The notes beneath the pieces were generated by a model. The model did no database searches, was not told the origin of the DNA, and saw only the letters and a program-made list of their open reading frames with translations. Of a stretch of 64,000 nt of DNA, positions 1,798 through 54,588 are shown piece by piece. Numbering within the stretch: the stretch's first letter is position 1; every line of letters starts with the position of its first letter. The position numbers were made by a program, and so were the translations under genes. The stretch spans positions 32,001 to 96,000 of the IMG/VR virus record IMGVR_UViG_3300025728_000008, one strand, 5' to 3'. This DNA comes from a virus.

Positions 1798-4700
1798 ATA
1801 AAATTGAGTTTTTATTAAAATAATCCACCATTACTACCTTGACCTCCATCATCCTTACCTGTACCACTGTCATCTCCACCTTTGGAGAAACATAACCAAG
1901 TTAGGATGATGAGAAATATTCCAAGTATTGTATAAATGATACCTCCTAATATTAAACCCCATATTGGATACATAATATCACCTCATAAAAGTAAACTTTT
2001 ATTCACCAAATTCTTTTCTATTAACATATAGAATATTATCACAAAGTTCATCAAAACATTTAATGCTACAAATACTTCCATACGCACTTCCAACAATATC
2101 CTCATCTTTTTCAGCAACTATTGTTCTTTCACATACAGTACAAGTTCCTTTTACCATATAAATTCCTCCTTGTTAAAAGTAAAATTTTATCAATCTTCAT
2201 AGATAGAAACAACTACCTTTACCCTTTTCCCATTGTATTCTTCTAACAAATCCCCTAAATCTGCACCGTCATCTCCTATTATTTCGTGCCAGATATATCC
2301 ATAATGTTCATTGTCTCTGACAGTACCAACCATGACAACTTGTTCTGTTCCAGATGAATCCTTACCTATATGATAGCTCTTTTTATTTTTCATACAATCA
2401 TCTCCCTTGTTAAAATTAAGATTTTATTTACCAAACACCTAACAAAACACATACCCATATTAAACATGCACAAGACAATATATAACAGACAACACTTATA
2501 ATATTTCTCATTAAAACACCCTCTTTCCAATTGCTTTCTCTATGTCTTTTCTCCATTCGTTGTAAAGTTTTGTGGCATATTTATCTAAACCTAATTCTTG
2601 TATAACTTCTTTCACGTGAATTTTTAATTTGTCATAAGTTTCCTCATCGTAATCAATCTCAATCTCAAAACTTTTAACTAAGTCTTCTTTGCTTCCTGTC
2701 TCGGAATAATCAAAATCTATATCATCAATATCTTGATTGATTGAAAAGACATGAAACAATCCTTTTTCTGTTGTCAAGTATCCACACAAACCACCAAAAG
2801 CAGGAGGTGAAAATCCTCTTTCTTCCCATTTTCTCATAAGCATCTCTCCTTTGTATAAGTTAATTATACTACATTATGATTCTTTTGTCAAGCGAAAATT
2901 TTTAGACTCCGTATTTTACTAAACTACGAATTTCATCTACTGCTTTTGGATGTGCTTCTTCACATTGTTCTAATTCTTGTAAAACCTCTTTTGGAGAATA
3001 TCCTAATGAAATAGCTTCATTGAATGCATCTATTGTTTCTTGATACGTCATAGAATCATCCCATTAATCTTGCTTAATCGTTCTTCTAATGTCTCTAGGG
3101 CTTCTTTAACTCTATCATTACGCACTTTATGTGAAGCATGTTCAATATCTCCTTCAAACTCTGTATAAGCTCTAAGCTTGTAATTCATTCGTTGAATCAT
3201 TTTAAAAAGCACCATCACATCATTACCACTACGCTCATAAGTGTTGATAATGTTGAATAGCATAGCGTTATTTTCTTTACTTGCTTGCATTTTCATTTCC
3301 TGTACCTTTTTAGCAGTTTCGGATTCTGTTTGCCATTTGTCTTGTTCATACATACTCATTGAATCACCCCTATTTTACGTTTTTAAAAACTCCTTGCTCT
3401 TTCACATAATAATTATAAGTTGGTGCATATTTATCTACATAAGCCTGTGCATCATGACCATTATCAAACGATGTAATGTATGTAGAATCATTATCATCAT
3501 AATAAGCATCAAGCTTTTCAAATATACTGTAAATTGTTGCGACTCTAATAGTTTTCATTAAACCGCCCCTTTCACATATCGTCTAACGTATCTATAAACA
3601 TTATCACGTACTTCTGTATCATCCCAATCCCACTTCATAGCATCGTGATAGTATAATTCTTTAACGTTGATACCAATTTTAATTATTTCATCGTCACTTG
3701 GATTTTGACCTGTAATATCCTTATAACACATTACAATGATATCATTCATCGGCTTATCTTCTTCATTTTCTAAAGTATTCATGTATGCCAAAACCCAATC
3801 TAGCATATCGACTCTATCCATTTCTAATTCTTTTTCTAACTGTGTTCGAGTAGATTTAAGTTGTTCTTTTAATGTTTTCCATTTACCCATAACATCATCT
3901 CCTTATCTTAATTACATTTTATCACACTTCAAATCTTGTGTCAAGCGAATTATTTAATTACTTTTTCAAGTTTCTCAATAAAATAATTCAATGTATTCGA
4001 AACAGGGAAATCATAGGCTTCAAATGCTTTGTCTTTCTCTTCCTTCATTTCTGCTAAAATCTCCAGAATGCTTTCTGTGCTGTTTGGAGATAAGATAGAC
4101 CCTTTTGTATCATCAATCAACTCTCCAGAATCTATAACCTTATCTATCTCACTTCTCATGGAAAGTGCAGTGCTCTTGTATTTAACAAACACACTGTCAA
4201 TATCATTTTCATACTCATCATAGAATGCTAAAGATAAACCACTACCAATACCAGACCCACTTAACCCAATACGTACAGATGCACCTTTTTGTTTTATAAA
4301 CATTGGTGATAATTCATCATGAAATTTTTTACCCATTAGACATCTCTCCTTTTAATTTATTATTATATTCCTCTTGCATTTTTTTATCTTTCTTGTCATT
4401 ACCTAGTTCTCTACATGACCAACAATAAACTTCTGTTTCTTTTTGATTATACCAATCATGACACCATTTACATTTACACATTGCCATAAGCATTCCTCCA
4501 TAAAATCAGACTTTTATACAGATTTTTTAGCACCTCTAGGTAGTTTGCCAACTGTAAATGGCTTATTTAAATCTCTAGAGCATCTAAGCTCACCATTAAG
4601 ATTAACAAAGTAATAAGAGCCATCCATAATCACTTTCCGTTGGACTTGATGTATTTCTCCAAGATAATCAATTAATATAGTTTTCAATGTAGTTTCCATA

Positions 4701-7700
4701 GTTTTCATAGCATTACCTCCTTGATAATATGAGAATTTTATCAGTCTACTCCTTTAGTCCAGTTAGCCAATAATCTTGCATGACTAATAACATGACTTTT
4801 AAATACTTTTACTAGACCTGCAACTCTCTTATTTTCTTGTGATTTTTTTGCAAATTCTTCGCTTGTAAGTTCTTCAACAATTTCATTTGTCAACTTTTGT
4901 ACTAATATAGCTTTTTCTTGTATATTCATAAACATTCCTCCTTATTCGTCATTCCAATGTGTTCCTGTCACTTTACGAACACAATCAAGCAAATGCAACT
5001 GCTTCTTTAAATCACCATCATGTAATGCATCTTCTAGAAGGTCTAGATAAGATTTAAGCTGTTCCATTTCACCTGCACCGATAACATATTGTACTTGCAT
5101 ATACATCACTCCTCATCATCATTTAAACAGTCTTCACAAGCGTTACAAGACCAACAATAAGCACATCCACAATCATTTCCACCACAATCACAACAATCAT
5201 ACATATACTCGCAATTACATGGTTTTGTCATATTATCGACTCCTTAGAATTAATGTATTTATATTCTTATTATTGTTACACCATGTACACTTACCGTTCT
5301 TTTCAATATTATAGAGTGTTAGACACGCTTTACAGCGTTTTGCTTTTGGTTTAATCATAATATCACTCTCCTATATAATATTGTAAAACATTGTTGGTAT
5401 CTATAATCTCGCCCGTTCCTTTAACATGAATATCTCCTTTTTCAGTTTGAACCGCCACACCATTATCCCAATCGTAATTAGAATGAATTGTCATATATGT
5501 TTCAACTTTCAAATAACTTGTTCTTGGTAAAACAACCTTATTCATAATTTCCCATGCTAGTTGATTAGCCATTTAACATCACTCCTTGTTTGTTTGTATC
5601 TTTATTATACAATACATTTTATGCTCTTGTCAAGCGAATGATACATTTATTTTAAAGAAATTTTACTGAATCAATATCTTCAACTTCAATTAATCCAGAA
5701 GATTCATTAATAATTCTAACTGCATCTCTGTCTACTGTGAAAGCAACTCTAGTATTCATAGCATTCCTTTGCTGTAATTCAGCATTGAATGTATATTGTT
5801 CATTAAATAACGCTTGCCCCGAATAACTAGTATAACACAATAATCTTCCATTTTCCTGTGTTGCTTTATCTAGAAGTGCATCAAGTCTTACTTTTTGTTC
5901 TTCTCTCATTTTTAGTACCATTTCAAGAGTAACCTTCCCTATTATTTCTACTCTTTTTCTTTTACTTATTTGTACACGTGAATTTGCAAAAGGAAAGACA
6001 TCTCTTTCTTGAGCTTTCATAATAAAATCGCCTACTTCTGGTATTTTCCCACCTTCTGCTTCACCATAAAAAGCAGATTTTTTATTTTTCATACAATAAT
6101 GATTCCATGAATCAACATAGAAAGTTACAAATTTTCTTTCCGTTGCTTCTTCTGTATGAGAAAACTTCATAACACCTACGGAATATCCATCTAGAACTAA
6201 TGTGTCTTTGTAATCCTCCTGCAATTCAAGCTGTGAAGGATAGAATCTACTCATTTTCTTATTTCCTTTTTTTAGAAAAAATGCCATTCTCTTCATTAGC
6301 ATCAACTCCTTGTTTTTGTTTGTACCTCAAGTATACCATTATCTTTTATGTAAGTCAACAACTATTTTCATCACCCCTTTATTATCTCAATAAGATGCAT
6401 CAAAGTTGTCATAATAGCAATACCCGTAAGGATTCCAAGTCCATATATTTTATGTCTTTCATTCATATAATCACCTCCTGCATAAATCTAAAATTTTATC
6501 AATAACCAAACAATTCTCTACTAACCTCTTTAAACCCTTCTTTTTCAAGATGGCTTTTATAAATAGTCCATTCATTGCTAATGATTCTCTTGTTTGCATT
6601 GTAATGGCTACAAGTTAGACTATTACCATTATAACCAACATGTAATACGATATATGCTGTTGTATATCTTTCTGTATCTTGAGACAATACAAAGGTTTGA
6701 CCTTCTTTCAAAGTCTCATTCTTGAATTTGTTTACAACATCTAATAATATCATAACATCACCCTTTCATAAAACAATCCTTTTATCATTCTTTATATTCA
6801 AATATTGTCATAGTAAGTACGTTTAATTTACTAAAATCAACTTTCTCCAATAGTTTAACCATTGCTTTCTGTTTATCTTTAGCTTCAACATACTCAATAT
6901 CATATCCACCATTAACAGTTGCAAAAACAAATTTATAAGTATTCATAATATCTCCCCTTTATAAAAGATTTCTTTTATCTATAGATAATCAATCAATTTT
7001 ACATCTTTATTCAACATGTAATTCCCTTTGTAATCTATACCAATGATAGGATTGTTTTTATTTTGCATAGAAATAATATTGTCAATAAATTCTTTCTTTG
7101 TTTTGGTACTTCCTAATCCAACTAAGTATCCAACTTTACGTAAATGAGATATATCAATTCCTTGTATCTTATTATTCGGATACATTCTATTAAGATAAGC
7201 TTTCCTTTCTTCTTTATGCTTCTGATAATCTATTTGCCATTGCATCATATACATTCCTCCTATTCGATATCTAAATAAGAATATTGAACTATTCCAGACC
7301 AACAGACAGTATCCATTCTTATATCTGTAAATGTATCGTTTGTAAAGTGTATTCTCACTACCAAAGGCTTCCCCTCTGGCGAGTGGTGCGTTTCTTCTAC
7401 TTTTTTAATAGTAAACCCTTCTGCTAATCTCAAAGCCATTATAGGTATCATATAACCCCTCCTAATATTTGCTTGCTAATCTTATCAGATACACAAATCC
7501 AAGAATACATAGAAGCTTGACAATGTTTATCATTGATTCCATTTAATTTTGTCACATAATGTATAGAATATTGTTAGTTCTGTTTGGGTTAATAATTTAC
7601 CTTCATTCAATTTCTTCCAATCTATAATAATATTATCTCCATCCACTTTATAAGTTTTCTCTTCCATACAATCACTCCTTTTGTTCTTCTATTATCTTAA

Positions 7701-9566
7701 TAGCTATTTCTAAACCCCTCATACAACCACTCTTTTTAGTTGTATGAGGTAATTGTCTAAGTTGTGCTTTTGCTAATTCCTCGTGTAATCTGAGAAGAAT
7801 TTCAACCTTACTCATTAATATGCAAATCCAATAACTTAGCTGTCAATTGCATAAGAGATTTTCTTAATTCATCAATTCTTTCCTTAATGCTTTCTTTTGC
7901 TCCCTCATGATGTACCCGTTTTAAATCTTGTTCCAATATATTTATTTCTGATTTTACTTCTCTTATCTTTAATTGTGTGTGATGGACATGAAATTGAAGT
8001 TGTTCTTCTGGCGTTAATTCTTCTACAGTTGTATCTACATCAATGAAGTGCAATTTAAACCATGAATCATCATCTTCACTGCTCACACCATGAGGATTTC
8101 CTTGTTCATCCCATGCATACAATTCTCCATCTTGAATGTATGAAGTGTATGTTTTTCCTTTAAGGAAATAAAATAAGTGTCGTGATGAACCAAGAGGGAC
8201 ATCTTTTATACATTGAATCATACTAGTCATTAACATTACCTCCTTTAGCTTCAATCATGGCTTCAATTTCTTGTTTCAAACCATCAATCCGAGTTACATC
8301 AATCATATCCATTTGACGATGTACACGAGGGTCTAAATCAGTCATTTCAGTAAGGTTTGCCAATGCATTATATACTGCTCCACTAGCATCATCCAATTGT
8401 TTCCATACCGTTTTTAAATTGTTTACAGTTTTATTTATACGTGTCATATACATTCCTCCCGATATTTAGGTCTCACTAGCACCCGTTTTGATAATTCAAA
8501 GCACCATACTTTGCCTTCTGGTGATTCTTTTGATATATACCATGTTTGTATTCTAAATTTATCTTCTTCAAGCTCTCTTGCTTTTTCTAAAGCCTTGAAA
8601 TAGCTTGAATCCTCGATTGTCACATCAATGACTTCATAAACTGTTTTAGTTATCTTCATGCAGTGATACCAACTGGACTTCCTGTTGATTCTAAATGTTT
8701 AATAGATTCTTTCAGAATGCGTTTTGCACTGTCATATACTACATTTCCTAGTGCTAGACTAATATAACCTTCCATACCATCTCCACCAACCCAATCATCA
8801 GCAGGTGATATTTCATAATCATAACCACCACATTCTAAAGTAACTTCCATTCCACTTTCTAACAACTCAACTGCTTCATCAAATGTAATCATAAACAACA
8901 TCCTCTCTTTTGTTGATATCTTTAGTATACTATATTCTTATTCTTCTGTCAAGCGAATTATGAATAATTTTCAACAATTGTATATTTATTTGCTTTTGCT
9001 TCATCAATAGCTTCCTGTTCTGTTTTGTAGTAAATAGTTGTCAGTTGGTTGTTTCTTCCTAATAGAGAGTAATTACGACCAGAATTGAAACAATAAATAA
9101 CATATCCTCTATGAGTTAATCTGATTTGTACTTTCATCAACATCACTCCTTATAATTTTAATAAAAGGTAATCCGTTTTTATATTTCCTTGAGCAATTGT
9201 TGTAATCGTGCGATTTCTTTTTTAATTACATCTCTACGCTCCATTTTTTCATTGTCTATAGTTCTTTCATTGCTATGTTCAAATGCACATTCTAATCCTT
9301 CTATGATTGGTTCTATTCCTGTTTCAGCTTGTAATCGTATTAATACCCACCCCATAGTACTATATTTTACAGTAGAAGAAATTGTAAAGTCTTTAGTTAA
9401 AGAGCATGTTTGTAAATAAGCTCCATGACCTTTTTCATTTTCAACATTGAAATAATCTTTGCCTTTACTTGTTATTTCCCACTTACTATTATTTAGAACA
9501 TGATTTAGTACCTCTGTAAACGTCATAAACATCTCTCCCTTTATCTTAATAAAATTGTGATTTTAT
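1798..9566. repeat. Dispersed 18-bp palindromes WTAAAA-N6-TTTTAT at gene junctions (1798, 1985, 2173, 2410, 4500, 4724, 6482, 6768, 6961, 9549; also 18878 and 54435)
   Basis: Read directly; constant 6-bp variable spacer; mostly between upstream stop codon and downstream RBS; two copies have one arm mismatch. Confidence 0.85.
5652..6296 (-). CDS. Hypothetical protein, paralog of 16802-17482
   Basis: Shared N-terminus FLKKGNKKMS.F..SQLELQE.Y.D.L; own promoter and RBS. Confidence 0.8.
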   Translation of the reverse strand: MKRMAFFLKKGNKKMSRFYPSQLELQEDYKDTLVLDGYSVGVMKFSHTEEATERKFVTFYVDSWNHYCMKNKKSAFYGEAEGGKIPEVGDFIMKAQERDVFPFANSRVQISKRKRVEIIGKVTLEMVLKMREEQKVRLDALLDKATQENGRLLCYTSYSGQALFNEQYTFNAELQQRNAMNTRVAFTVDRDAVRIINESSGLIEVEDIDSVKFL

Positions 9567-10445
9567 ACAAATTTCTTAGGTGGCTAAAACCCCGTCTATT
9601 AACGGGATTCTAGCTCTTTGATTTTTTGCTCCCAATGTTCGATGCCATGCTTGTTAGTTGCTAATTGCTCAAGAATCTCAAGTCTTTCCTCTTGCATACG
9701 TTGATGATGCTTTTTAGCTTCATTTAACAATGATGTATGGATTAAATCAGCTACAGTTGCATCCTCTGGCATCGCTATTAATGGTTCAAATGTTAGGAAA
9801 TGTACTTTACCTCTTACATCATATTTATAGCGTTTATCTGCTGTGTATTCAATGTTATACTTCATAATTTTGTGGTACTCACCTTTGATGTGAATATCCC
9901 AACAATAATCTATTTGTAATCCTGTTTCATTTCTTTGAAGGATTTCATCTGTGATTGCAATGATTTCTTGATGAAGTTTTCCAATATTATCAAACTTTAC
10001 ACCTCTAAATTTTGCAGTTACCTCTGTATTTAATTGGTCAATTAACGATTTAAGTTTCATGAACACCACTCCTTTGAATTTGTTTTGTTTTCTTATTATC
10101 TCAAGTATACATCATAATTATTCTTTTGTCAAGCGACTAAAATAAAATTCTTTTTAATTCTTCAACAATGTCATCTCGTGTTGGTTTATCCTGCCTAATC
10201 GTTGCAATTAAACATTCAATTTCCGTCCTCATATCATCTAAATGTTCTTGTGCTGTTACTTCTTCTGCTTCTTCTGCAAATGCATTTTCAAGCTCATCAA
10301 CTTCATCATCAATTTGTTTATATAATTCCAACACTTCATAGTTTGGCTCTGTTAAATCATAGAGGTAATTGTGGAGGGCTTTGACACCCTCCAGATTAGC
10401 CTTAGGTACGTTTACAATCATACACATATGCATTCCTCCTAAATG

Positions 10446-18707: not shown

Positions 18708-19004
18708 GACTTGTTAGGGGTATATTGTTTTAAAAATAGTATTTGCACCCAGATTTTTATCTGTTTTGAGCCAATAATATATGAATCTTTGTTTGGGGCG
18801 CAGGACATTCAAAAAAATACTCTCATTAAAATATTCGTTCGTTCCATGCCAATGAAACAATACAGGCGAAAACGTGGATAAAATACGAATTTTATCAAGA
18901 AAAACAGGTGCAAAATGTTCCGTCTATTGACGGTATAAATTTTTTTGTTACTTCTGTATCAATAGAATTATAGCGAAAAACAAGGAAAATCAAGCTGATT
19001 CCCC

Positions 19005-19781
19005 TTATGATTCCATATTCCATACTAATCTGTTTATTTCTCCACACAATAATGATAAATCTTGATATGATTCATTTTCTTCATTTTTGACTGCTGTATC
19101 ATAAGCTAAGTTTTGTATCAATTTTATTGTCTTTTCTTGTTCTTTTACTTTTGCTTCCATCATGATTCTATATTCGTGATGTGCTTTAATTTTTAATATG
19201 TGAGGATATAATGTTGTTTTTGCAGTTTGCAAATAACGTGCATACTCTGGATATCTGTCTCTACCTTCTTTAAACAGTGGCAAGAAATATTCCTCTGTTT
19301 CCAATGCTTGACGATATTCTTTTTCTGGCGTTGCATCTTGTAATGTAGACATATTATGTTTTCTGTCTGCTGTCTTGACTAATAATTTTCGCCAATCTTT
19401 CAATATCTCATTTAAGTAATGTACGAATGCAACTCTATTTGTCTTATAATCAATATTTGGGTCTTTTGTTACTCCTAATACTACATCTGCTACTTCTTCA
19501 CCAAACAATGATTTAATTGTCTCATATGTAATCTCTGGTACATCTTCAATACTGTCATGCAATACAAATGCTGTTAACACTATTTTATCTGTTATGTTGT
19601 TATTAATAAGGTCTTGTGTCCCGTCTACAAGATGCATATAATAATGTGTACCATCATGACGTTTATATCCATTTGTTGCATTCATAGTAACCAACATCCA
19701 ATTTAATGCTTTTAATGTATCCCAACAACCTAGTTCCATTAAATCCTTTTGTAATTGTATAACACGAGATTCTACTGCCAT
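19005..19781 (-). CDS. HD-domain (p)ppGpp hydrolase-like protein (SpoT/Mesh1-type small alarmone hydrolase)
   Basis: KRHDGTHYYMH, LHDSIED, FGEEVADVVLGVTK, LVKTADRKHNM. Confidence 0.85.
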   Translation of the reverse strand: MAVESRVIQLQKDLMELGCWDTLKALNWMLVTMNATNGYKRHDGTHYYMHLVDGTQDLINNNITDKIVLTAFVLHDSIEDVPEITYETIKSLFGEEVADVVLGVTKDPNIDYKTNRVAFVHYLNEILKDWRKLLVKTADRKHNMSTLQDATPEKEYRQALETEEYFLPLFKEGRDRYPEYARYLQTAKTTLYPHILKIKAHHEYRIMMEAKVKEQEKTIKLIQNLAYDTAVKNEENESYQDLSLLCGEINRLVWNMES

Positions 19782-19849
19782 AATATCATCCTCCTAAAAA
19801 TGTAAGTAATACCATTATATTATTATTATTTGCTTTTGTCAACATTATA

Positions 19850-41617: not shown

Positions 41618-41830
41618 ATGCTCTTATTTTGCGTTCTAAGGCTTTTGAATACAAATACTCCAGAATGAATTTTAGAACGCTCTATGAAGCCGAGAGACAG
41701 GTTTAAATTAATTCTAAGATACTCACAGGGACAAAGATTAAAAATAATAATATATTTTGTTGACAAATTCGTCTAAGTATAATATAATATGATTATAGGG
41801 TCACTTAATAAAAATTCGGAGGTCGATATT

Positions 41831-42847
41831 ATGGCAAAATTAGGAAACGTATTTCATTTGAATAGCAGAGAAGAAAATAGAAACCCATATGCAAGTATTC
41901 TTACGTTCTTGAATCGTAAAGGTCAAGACAGTAAAAATACAAAGGATACTTACCAAAGACATATTCAAGATTTCTTTCATTCGATGAGAGGGAAGGAATT
42001 GTCTCAATTACTGGAAGATGACTTAGTATTTACAAAGACACAAACAAAGACATACCAAGTAGCTTTAAAAGAACAATATAAGGGAAGTACAGTTAACAAT
42101 GTTATAAGTGCATTAAAAGAGTGCTATAACCAATTAGAAGATGATGGATTCAATGTAAGTGCATCGTGGTTTAATTTAGAAAGATATGATGAGCATGATT
42201 CAGAAAGTTGGGATGCTTTCACACATCCAGAAGTTATTCAAATTATTAATTTAGTTTCAAGCACAAGAGCAGGTCGTCAAAAGTCATTACTTGTAAGATT
42301 AGCATATGCTACAGCATTTCGTAAAAAGTCATTGTTAGATTTAAAATTCTCTGACATTGTTGAAATTAGTGGAATCTGGTACATCAAAACTTTAGGTAAA
42401 GGTAATAAATGGTCGCACAAAAAATTGTCTGATGACCTATACAATGAGCTTATGAGTTTCAAAGAAGAAGCTAAACGAGACAAAATTTTTACTCTTACAG
42501 TAAAAACAGTAAACAAGATGATGGACTATATCCGTGATAACATTGATTTTGGTGACAGACGAATTGTATTTCATAGCTTCAAAAAAGCAAGTATTGAAGA
42601 AGTAAATGTAATTACAGGTGGAGATTTACGTGCAATGCAAGCGCATGGAGACCATAGCAATCCTGCAACAACAATTGATAATTACCTTGCTAAGAAGAAG
42701 TTAGAAGACCTAGTGGAAGTAGATGTGAATAGTAAAGTGCCAGTTGAAGAATTTGAAAAGCTAACAAGAGATGATTTGCTTGAATTATTAGCAAATGCAG
42801 ACAGAAACATTCAAATACAGTTATTGAGAAAGATGGGTAAAATGTAA
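41831..42847 (+). CDS. Tyrosine recombinase/integrase
   Basis: TAFRK, GKGNK, FHSFKK, GDHS, TTIDNY catalytic set; RBS GGAGGT; sigmaA promoter TTGACA at 41761. Confidence 0.85.
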   Translation: MAKLGNVFHLNSREENRNPYASILTFLNRKGQDSKNTKDTYQRHIQDFFHSMRGKELSQLLEDDLVFTKTQTKTYQVALKEQYKGSTVNNVISALKECYNQLEDDGFNVSASWFNLERYDEHDSESWDAFTHPEVIQIINLVSSTRAGRQKSLLVRLAYATAFRKKSLLDLKFSDIVEISGIWYIKTLGKGNKWSHKKLSDDLYNELMSFKEEAKRDKIFTLTVKTVNKMMDYIRDNIDFGDRRIVFHSFKKASIEEVNVITGGDLRAMQAHGDHSNPATTIDNYLAKKKLEDLVEVDVNSKVPVEEFEKLTRDDLLELLANADRNIQIQLLRKMGKM

Positions 42848-54433: not shown

Positions 54434-54588
54434 GATAAAAGAGCGATTTTATCAAAATACATACAAAAGTGCTTTGTAAAGCACTAATATATGAAGGGTA
54501 TTTTAAAGTGTCTCAATCGCAACTCTCCCTGTGGTTGGGACATCTAATAAATATCCTTTTCATATTGTGTGTAAAAGGAGTGAAGTAA

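Follow-up and report, generated by a model that had tools for sequence, protein, structure and literature searches.

A palindromic element, ATAAAA-N6-TTTTAT, was analyzed in a 64,000-nucleotide stretch of virus DNA (the window), which comprised bases 32001-96000 of the 159,412-bp IMG/VR record IMGVR_UViG_3300025728_000008; the whole record was labelled G000. The element consisted of two inverted 6-bp arms around a 6-nucleotide (nt) centre of fixed length and variable sequence, had the character of duplex DNA and was conserved around swapped genes, with each centre being kept among relatives and unique within its own genome. Based on these sequence comparisons, we proposed that the sites were heterospecific recombination sites, i.e., targets of a phage-encoded symmetric dimer that was most likely an Xer-type recombinase, and gave this proposal about an even chance of being correct.

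Exact copies of ATAAAA-N6-TTTTAT started at eight positions of the window (1798, 1985, 4500, 6768, 6961, 9549, 18878 and 54435), when shuffled sequences were expected to hold 0.16 copies and held two at the maximum. Four other sites, at 2173, 2410, 4724 and 6482, carried one arm mismatch each (TTTTAA, TTTTAA, TATTAT and ATTTAT in gene orientation, respectively). Hence, the original prediction, which had listed 12 copies with conserved arms, was right on all twelve spacers, as read on the + strand, but the arms were exact in eight of these sites only. The invariance of the spacer length, also predicted, was confirmed by counting over the whole of G000: 18 copies were found at N6 and 0-2 at each other spacing from N0 to N15, so that N6 alone was enriched in the spacing count that had been suggested as a check, and the reversed control TTTTAT-Nx-ATAAAA gave 0-2 copies.

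Every gene between positions 1798 and 9566 was on the minus strand, and centres and arms are given in gene orientation unless stated otherwise. The typical order was a stop codon, 6 nt, TTTTAT or TTTTAA, 0-3 nt, AAGGAGG and ATG. The stop codon was either the TAA within ATAAAA or a stop ending on the first A of the arm, with that TAA as the second in-frame stop, and the distance from the end of the 3' arm to the next ATG was 12-19 nt. As had been anticipated, the sites touched the upstream stop and adjoined the next ribosome-binding site (RBS), which was of the AAGGAGG type and directly followed the 3' arm, and the open reading frames (ORFs) 2190-2393, 4514-4708 and 6499-6753 each lay between two sites. 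Sites were also located far from any RBS and inside a gene. The geometry of inverted arms and a fixed 6-bp centre agreed with the predicted likeness to a tyrosine-recombinase core site.

The window belonged to a Tsamsa-like Tyrovirus. The Tyroviruses, which are temperate siphoviruses of large size from the B. cereus group, carry a plasmid-like module and owe their name to three tyrosine recombinases, conserved but of unknown role (PMC9703825); the Tsamsa genome has been described in PMC3903500. A search of the text of these two papers found neither "palindrom" nor "intergenic". The closest named relatives of G000 were the Bacillus phages C30-3 and pW2, followed by the Thrax phages, Nate and Tsamsa. 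The set of six Tyroviruses used for comparison consisted of G000, C30-3, pW2, Tsamsa, Thrax4 and Nate, which represented at least three named genera and two unclassified records. C30-3 had 19 copies of its own, and across the six phages the sites formed a single collinear order in which the centres were identical: tttccc, tcttac, actcaa, gtttac, ttttac, tcttaa, gtctga, ttctca, ttttag, ggattg and gaaatc. The sites in the window and the single genes occupying the slots between them were as follows (lengths of proteins in amino acids, aa).

1798-1815, site actcaa, exact, separating the variable ORF 1815-1973 from the conserved gene 1502-1783; centre present in six of six Tyroviruses; homology with C30-3 breaks at the 5' arm
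1815-1973, minus strand, slot gene of 52 aa, predicted membrane peptide, no homologue in the five other Tyroviruses
1985-2002, site gtttac, exact, the TAA of its arm being the stop of ORF 1999-2157; present in four of six phages; identity island of 29 nt with C30-3
1999-2157, minus strand, slot gene of 52 aa, Cys-rich, no homologue in the five other Tyroviruses
2173-2190, site ttttac, 3' arm TTTTAA in six of six phages
2190-2393, minus strand, slot gene of 67 aa, no homologue in the five other Tyroviruses
2410-2427, site tcttaa, 3' arm TTTTAA in six of six phages
4500-4517, site gtctga, exact, identity island with C30-3 being precisely the 18-mer
4514-4708, minus strand, slot gene of 64 aa, N-terminal part of the 144-aa family phrog_12815, ORF closed by the TAA of the site
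4724-4741, site ttctca, 3' arm TATTAT in G000
6482-6499, site ttttag, 3' arm ATTTAT in G000 and pW2 and TTTGAT in Tsamsa and Nate, with no compensation in the other arm
6499-6753, minus strand, slot gene of 84 aa, no homologue in the five other Tyroviruses
6768-6785, site ggattg, exact
6785-6946, minus strand, slot gene of 53 aa, no homologue in the five other Tyroviruses
6961-6978, site gaaatc, exact, identity island of 24 nt with C30-3, the genes on both sides being different
54435-54452, site gagcga, exact, in a block of + strand genes, 2 nt past a stop codon and with no adjoining RBS; same centre in C30-3

The genes in these slots differed from phage to phage. Six single-gene slots between neighbouring sites held 29 occupants, which belonged to 29 different protein families, and the sole shared occupant was a gene in a seventh slot that was common to Tsamsa and Thrax4 (95% identical). 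When the slots were compared among three phages, blastn and tblastx coverage was 0 for all pairs in four of six slots. Most occupants were seen once, and three protein families (F29, F7 and F13) sat in different slots in different phages. Further, in the part of G000 that all six phages cover, genes with two flanking sites (n = 7) had homologues in 0 of the five other phages, compared with averages of 0.9 phages for genes with one such site and 2.4 for genes with none (P = 1e-4), and the contrast held against small genes only (P = 4e-4). Motif junctions were enriched beside genes without a homologue in the G000 and C30-3 comparison, with odds ratios of 6.6 (P = 2e-4) and 10.6 (P = 3e-6).

The alignment of related phages, which the original prediction had proposed, placed the breaks of homology at the sites. 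Between G000 and C30-3, the ends of homology blocks coincided with sites, and nine of the 11 exact islands of at least 20 nt outside the homology blocks were sites. At orthologous sites with different neighbours, the identity ended at the edge of the 5' arm (median overrun of 0 nt) and, on the other side, ran past the 3' arm by 0-13 nt. Such breaks at the arm edges were compatible with a strand exchange within the centre, which the partner sites had in common. In phages SPbeta and phi3T, five sites formed islands in non-homologous DNA, and homology boundaries fell at 10 of 29 site junctions versus 24 of 145 site-free junctions (P = 0.04). The predicted role of the sites as boundaries of swapped accessory genes was thus supported by sequence comparison, and the pattern pointed to an undescribed gene-exchange system. 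The slot gene 4514-4708 corresponded to the first ~60 residues of phrog_12815, a family of Herelleviridae phages. In Bastille-like myoviruses, which infect the same hosts, the gene was longer (435 nt, ~144 aa) and matched the slot gene at a nucleotide identity of 76-79%. This homology stopped a few nt short of the 5' arm. 4514-4708 looked like a gene fragment captured from an unrelated phage family.

Two regularities were observed in the centres. Orthologous centres were identical, while the coding backbone between two sites was 74-86% identical. The chance of such identity per phage pair was 1e-4 to 1e-8, and 0.08 for the pair Tsamsa/Thrax4; the site families were defined by the centre, yet hardly any collinear sites with diverged centres were seen. 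Within genomes, no identical centre pairs were found, compared with 7.3 expected from column shuffles (P = 0.0025) or 7.9 expected from the cross-genome rate (Poisson P = 4e-4), and pairs differing by at most one base numbered 68 versus 102 expected (P = 2e-4). Additionally, at three orthologous sites the centre was the exact reverse complement of that in the relative (G000 6894 and C30-3 90693; Thrax4 L156:34816 and Nate L157:34880; SPbeta 99498 and phi3T 88478). The flanks were homologous in the first two pairs, and the SPbeta/phi3T site was an island in non-homologous DNA. Inversions of this kind and point changes had about the same frequency in the centres.

Partner sites of Cre, FLP, lambda Int and Xer need matching centres, and centres that were unique at home and identical in relatives fitted what would be expected of recombination sites of this kind. 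A plain operator or an RNA signal predicts neither rule. The original prediction had compared the centre to the coupling sequence tolerated by Tn916-type integrases; that comparison did not hold, the centres being position-specific, shared by the six phages and free of repeats in any one genome.

The motif was neither private to G000 nor a host motif, and motif-rich phages carried dozens of sites at gene junctions. The fixed N6 was found in nine phage genomes, in which other spacings and reversed controls gave 0-5 copies. Pattern scans of IMG/VR and of genome collections returned mostly scattered single matches, and the large phage contigs G001, G002, G003 and G005, unrelated and with dense arrays, were reached through the IMG/VR scan. 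These phages had only 12-16 distant proteins in common with G000. Whole-record counts of ATRAAA-N6-TTTYAT were 65 in G001, 59 in G005, 46 in G002 and 12 in a 15.5-kb fragment, with 0-4 copies at other spacings and 0-1 in reversed controls. Among the named phages, 38 copies were counted in Psychrobacillus phage Perkons, 24 in Geobacillus phage E3, 14 in SPbeta, six in Staphylococcus phage 6ec and two in Lactococcus phage 949; the shorter core TAAAA-N6-TTTTA was present 34 times in SPbeta and 30 times in phi3T. In a de novo scan of spaced 5-mer palindromes, the motif ranked first in G000, G001, G005, G002, Perkons, E3 and SPbeta. It was not first in 949, which was counted as motif-free; the most enriched spaced palindrome of that phage was ATTAT-N3-ATAAT, with 10 copies versus ~2 at other spacings.

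Four Bacillaceae/Paenibacillus chromosomes (4-6 Mb) contained 4-10 copies each, not above the reversed control (4-10), which ruled out the site of a host factor; the binder should therefore be phage-encoded. A general feature of Bacillus phages was ruled out as well, since the Herelleviridae phage Janet, from the same host group, had 0 copies. SPbeta, E3 and Perkons had diverged too far from one another for orthologous sites to be shared. The slot test was not replicated in the G001 lineage, for which the IMG/VR relatives found through a neighbouring kinase-like gene were at most 46% identical and lacked the motif.

The arms were used to distinguish a duplex site from a folded one. They read ATAAAA/TTTTAT, or in G001 and Perkons ATRAAA/TTTYAT, and were degenerate in a symmetric manner; the centre was also symmetric in avoiding A at position 1 and T at position 6. 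In 44 oriented sites of G001, the mirror positions 3 and 16 were A.C in 17, A.T in 14, G.T in 11 and G.C in two, when 5.6 G.C pairs were expected under independence; the mismatched A.C was thus the commonest variant. The arms of Perkons were unchanged in nine sites, changed in one arm in 21 and in both in eight, which matched independence, and in the Tyroviruses single-arm changes were fixed across phages and uncompensated. Because the arm variants occurred without compensatory pairing, the site was read as duplex DNA. The data pointed to double-stranded DNA, not a hairpin, and to a symmetric dimer that would read the half-site ATRAAA(B). A hairpin of RNA or single-stranded DNA was ruled out, there being no covariation and only marginal stability (AU-only RNA stems of -0.5 to -3.7 kcal/mol).

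The same data bore on an mRNA signal, that is, a small AU hairpin or an AU-rich element between the stop and the Shine-Dalgarno sequence that would serve translational coupling, processing or binding of a RegA-type repressor. The constant position, with the stop overlap and the short distance to the ATG, would suit such a signal, as would the location of all class-1 sites within operons and the possible 6-bp stem with a 6-nt loop. The weak stems and uncompensated arm changes spoke against it; moreover, sites far from any RBS or inside a gene did not agree with it, inverted centres were tolerated, and the uniqueness of centres within genomes was left unexplained. The RNA-level alternative of the original prediction was hence disfavoured, and we regarded an mRNA signal as very improbable.

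Three genes with a tyrosine-recombinase fold were considered as sources of the binding protein.

41789-42847, + strand, Xer-type tyrosine recombinase (Tyrovirus gp19, SPbeta YopP-like), Pfam Phage_integrase and SAM_1, adjoining a Replic_Relax gene
G000 99340-100323, outside the window, gp50/YomM-like recombinase, adjoining the tape-measure gene
G000 18806-19816, minus strand, 12-13 kb upstream of the window start, Pfam MrpR_N_CB and MrpR_C_cat, the "third tyrosine recombinase"

The first of these had been named, as the recombinase at 41831, a candidate catalyst by the original prediction. It was not the best candidate: motif-rich phages such as G002 lacked it, and it had a Lys (HSFK, HxxK for HxxR) aligned at the second catalytic Arg (alignment A1), as did SPbeta YopP and YomM. 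No sequence match to this protein was found in the PDB. The gp50/YomM-like protein of G000 had the full R-K-H-R-H-Y catalytic set and was the only recombinase common to all motif-rich phages. G002, which was estimated to be complete and had 46 sites, contained no other recombinase. Equivalents, conserved directly before the tape-measure gene or close to it, were present in the very distant large siphophages of Bacillota G001, G002, G005, SPbeta, E3, Perkons and 949, and tblastn matches occurred in 167 phage records. By this phyletic pattern, the gp50/YomM-like protein was the best candidate enzyme, and we infer that a recombinase, perhaps this one, binds and cuts the sites and that exchange requires identity of the centres.

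MrpR is a recombinase fold that turned into the master repressor of SPbeta and binds a repeated intergenic element, SPBRE (PMC10516654). The MrpR-like protein of G000 was unlikely to be a common binder, since it was absent from G001, G002 and G005, and SPBRE was ruled out as the present motif, the core at MrpR-bound promoters being AAAATATGTATA. A promoter for a YonO-type phage RNA polymerase was also ruled out; YonO was absent from the Tyroviruses and undetected in E3, and the RBS abutted the 3' arm. A search for a nuclease or a regulator common to all motif-rich phages found neither.

The promoters of the window were located as well. Operons between 1798 and 9566 had consensus sigmaA promoters at 2891, 3944, 5633, 8952 and 10132 (minus strand). 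Those serving the arrays were found only upstream of them (2891, 5633 and 8952), so that the slot genes would be read from an upstream promoter. No promoter match of at least 10/12 overlapped any 18-mer, and only weak 9/12 matches were found, on the opposite strand. A second class of sites was composite, with the palindrome CCGTCTATWGACGG 24-25 bp from the core and always on the upstream side in gene orientation. G000 contained four composite sites, two with cores in the window; the other CCGTCTATWGACGG positions were G000 6936 and 20028.

2863-2891, minus strand, consensus sigmaA promoter TTGACA-17-TATAAT, positioned for transcription of the operon with sites 2410-1798
5604-5633, minus strand, consensus sigmaA promoter, upstream of the operon with sites 4724 and 4500
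9549-9566, composite-site core tcacaa, exact; tcacga or taacga in relatives
9592-9605, second palindrome CCGTCTATTAACGG, 25 bp from the core, hairpin- or terminator-like, after the stop of gene 9599-10069
18878-18895, composite-site core ttcgta, exact, in non-coding DNA that was conserved, 220 nt ahead of the next gene
18920-18933, second palindrome CCGTCTATTGACGG, 24 bp from the core

One composite site lay between two sigmaA promoters upstream of the MrpR-like gene. This protein may be the lysogeny repressor of the phage, with CCGTCTATWGACGG as its operator. Outside the window, at G000 98228-98245 (equivalent to 66228), a site was observed directly upstream of an extended -10 promoter, TGTTATAAT, and ~1.1 kb before the gp50-like recombinase gene. 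Separately, the 20-nt element ATTATATCATTATTTTTTGT at G000 148461-148480, also outside the window, had more than 10 matching places in C30-3 and may be part of a repeated promoter.

Several observations weighed against recombination sites. Some crossovers took place outside the 18-mer: one, at 1985, lay 9 nt into the upstream gene, a second ~25 nt into the F29 gene, and others at the ATG after a shared leader. Between Tsamsa and Thrax4, ~8 of 40 replacement edges were at sites, when ~5.6 would be expected at random, as estimated from 11 sites among ~79 junctions with edges placed randomly on junctions; therefore, most gene turnover does not need the motif and, in these early regions, its rate is high without the motif as well. 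Five of the 19 motif junctions in G000 separated conserved genes, and the composite sites were located in promoter regions, which together suggested a regulatory role. The Herelleviridae phages, as the apparent donor of the 4514-4708 cassette, had no site. The conserved arm was only 6 bp long, or 7 bp with a weak T/A preference at the outer centre positions, whereas known tyrosine recombinases have arms of 9-13 bp, each contacted by one monomer. The flanks of the sites were asymmetric, with the stop codon on one side and the RBS on the other. The link between gp50 and the motif was weak, because phage 949 had a 55%-identical gp50-like recombinase and was motif-free. Moreover, another palindrome directly after gp50 has been proposed as the attP of that enzyme (PMC9703825); its sequence differed, which ruled it out as the present motif.

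The main rival was an operator, which the original prediction had named among its alternatives. It would serve a dimeric regulator encoded by the phage, such as a silencer of early operons that acts as a roadblock or in a stoperator-like way, or a controller specific to junctions. The gene swaps would then be a by-product of short identity and of general or single-strand-annealing recombination, as at the PeSL elements. A symmetric duplex half-site is typical of helix-turn-helix dimers, and the sites in conserved contexts and promoter regions, such as those upstream of the MrpR-like gene and at the extended -10, would be explained, as would the crossovers outside the 18-mer and the many replacements without sites. 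Efficient short-homology recombination would also disfavour identical centres within a genome, and both the PeSLs (PMC2839356, PMC4122927) and MrpR (PMC10516654) provide precedents. However, an uncontacted centre should drift, and the centres were conserved above nearby coding DNA. Most sites were inside operons rather than at promoters, no regulator was common to the motif-rich phages (the MrpR-like protein being missing from three of them), and the MrpR peaks of SPbeta map to SPBRE, a different sequence (PMC10516654). Islands of 18-30 bp are also short for homologous exchange, yet the slots differed even between 95%-identical phages. We considered an operator a serious rival, though the less probable reading.

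It was also considered that the sites might have another DNA function, as a target for nicking or cutting or as a replication or packaging signal, with breaks spurring repair-driven gene conversion from co-infecting relatives. The clustering of crossovers at the sites and also near them would suit this, the three centre inversions suggested DNA processing at the arms, and RuvC and other recombination proteins were encoded by these phages (also PMC9703825). This function was judged improbable, as the search for a common nuclease gave no candidate and the conservation of the centres was not predicted by it.

The heterospecific recombination sites proposed here were compared with known systems. 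The original prediction had favoured an integron-like mechanism. Promoterless single-gene units separated by imperfect palindromes and a suspected tyrosine recombinase were indeed alike. In an integron, however, attC acts as a folded single strand that travels with the gene, whereas here the sequence was conserved, no attC fold or arm covariation was found, and the sites kept their order and identity while the genes changed. No IntI, attI or Pc was present beside the arrays; the closest gene with a recombinase fold, that of the MrpR-like protein, was ~5 kb from the nearest array, and the catalytic-type recombinases at 74 kb and 99 kb of G000 were more than 30 kb away. The integron-like mechanism was thus not retained. 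The pdif modules of Acinetobacter plasmids (PMC6449649, PMC13141974) are closer in that Xer-type sites with a 6-bp centre bound one or a few accessory genes and the modules are shuffled between replicons; the replicon studied here may also live as a plasmid, given the plasmid-like module of Tyroviruses (PMC9703825). The pdif sites, in contrast, are 28 bp long, have distinct 11-bp XerC and XerD arms and use host enzymes, while the sites described here had identical, symmetric 6-bp arms, a fixed order and position-specific centres in a phage with its own recombinases.

Short repeated elements of other phages were also compared. The PeSLs of T4-type phages (PMC2839356, PMC4122927) are short, conserved intergenic elements on either side of small variable ORFs in the hyperplastic early regions, where they coincide with the boundaries of insertions, deletions and replacements; however, a PeSL consists of a sigma70 promoter and a terminator hairpin and is exchanged by homologous recombination, whereas the 18-mer had no promoter or stable hairpin and a unique, conserved centre at each site. 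The stoperators of Cluster A mycobacteriophages (PMC9283540, PMC6550527) resembled the sites in their dozens of short intergenic copies, often over stop or start codons, and differed in being asymmetric and 13-14 bp long, in following the direction of transcription and in binding an immunity repressor that is a monomer, in place of a palindrome with a variable centre of fixed length. SPBRE is likewise a repeated intergenic element bound by a recombinase-fold protein, of which G000 encoded a relative; it is, however, a 15-bp promoter element with the unrelated core AAAATATGTATA (PMC10516654), and the 34 motif copies of SPbeta were distinct from it.

The closest logic was that of engineered lox/FRT cassette exchange, in which the arms are common, the centre decides on pairing and incompatible flanking sites block excision. 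That system is man-made and has 13-bp arms and an 8-bp spacer, whereas here the proposed logic was drawn from sequence statistics only. To our knowledge, no natural system with the logic of heterospecific cassette exchange has been described.

The mechanism that we proposed was as follows. A phage-encoded symmetric dimer would bind the 18-bp duplex site, with the two 6-bp arms being common to all sites and the 6-bp centre serving as the identity of each. With every centre unique in the genome, a phage's own sites would not recombine with each other and the array would stay stable, and the same centre in a relative would allow pairing with the counterpart in a co-infecting or resident phage. 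Exchange at two neighbouring sites would then replace one promoterless gene, from RBS to stop, leaving its neighbours untouched, and the stop in the 5' arm together with the RBS beside the 3' arm would keep the incoming ORF expressed. In its full form, this would be a natural heterospecific cassette exchange, carried out slot by slot between co-infecting relatives by one phage recombinase, with the own genome guarded from deletion, in a clade of large Bacillales siphophages that comprises Tyroviruses, SPbeta-like phages, Geobacillus E3, Psychrobacillus Perkons and uncultured lineages. This full form was put forward tentatively, as somewhat less probable than not.

The modular theory of phage evolution long ago raised the question of clean single-gene swaps at gene boundaries. 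The boundary elements described here were explicit, countable and testable, and they were present in the genetically tractable SPbeta. A candidate function is also offered for the "orphan" tyrosine recombinases that define the Tyroviruses and, in many phages, adjoin the tape-measure gene. If the rule of centre identity is true, recombinase-mediated cassette exchange would have a counterpart in nature, and a ready set of orthogonal sites would be available for the engineering of Bacillus phages. The hypervariable slots themselves are likely places for anti-defence or host-takeover genes.

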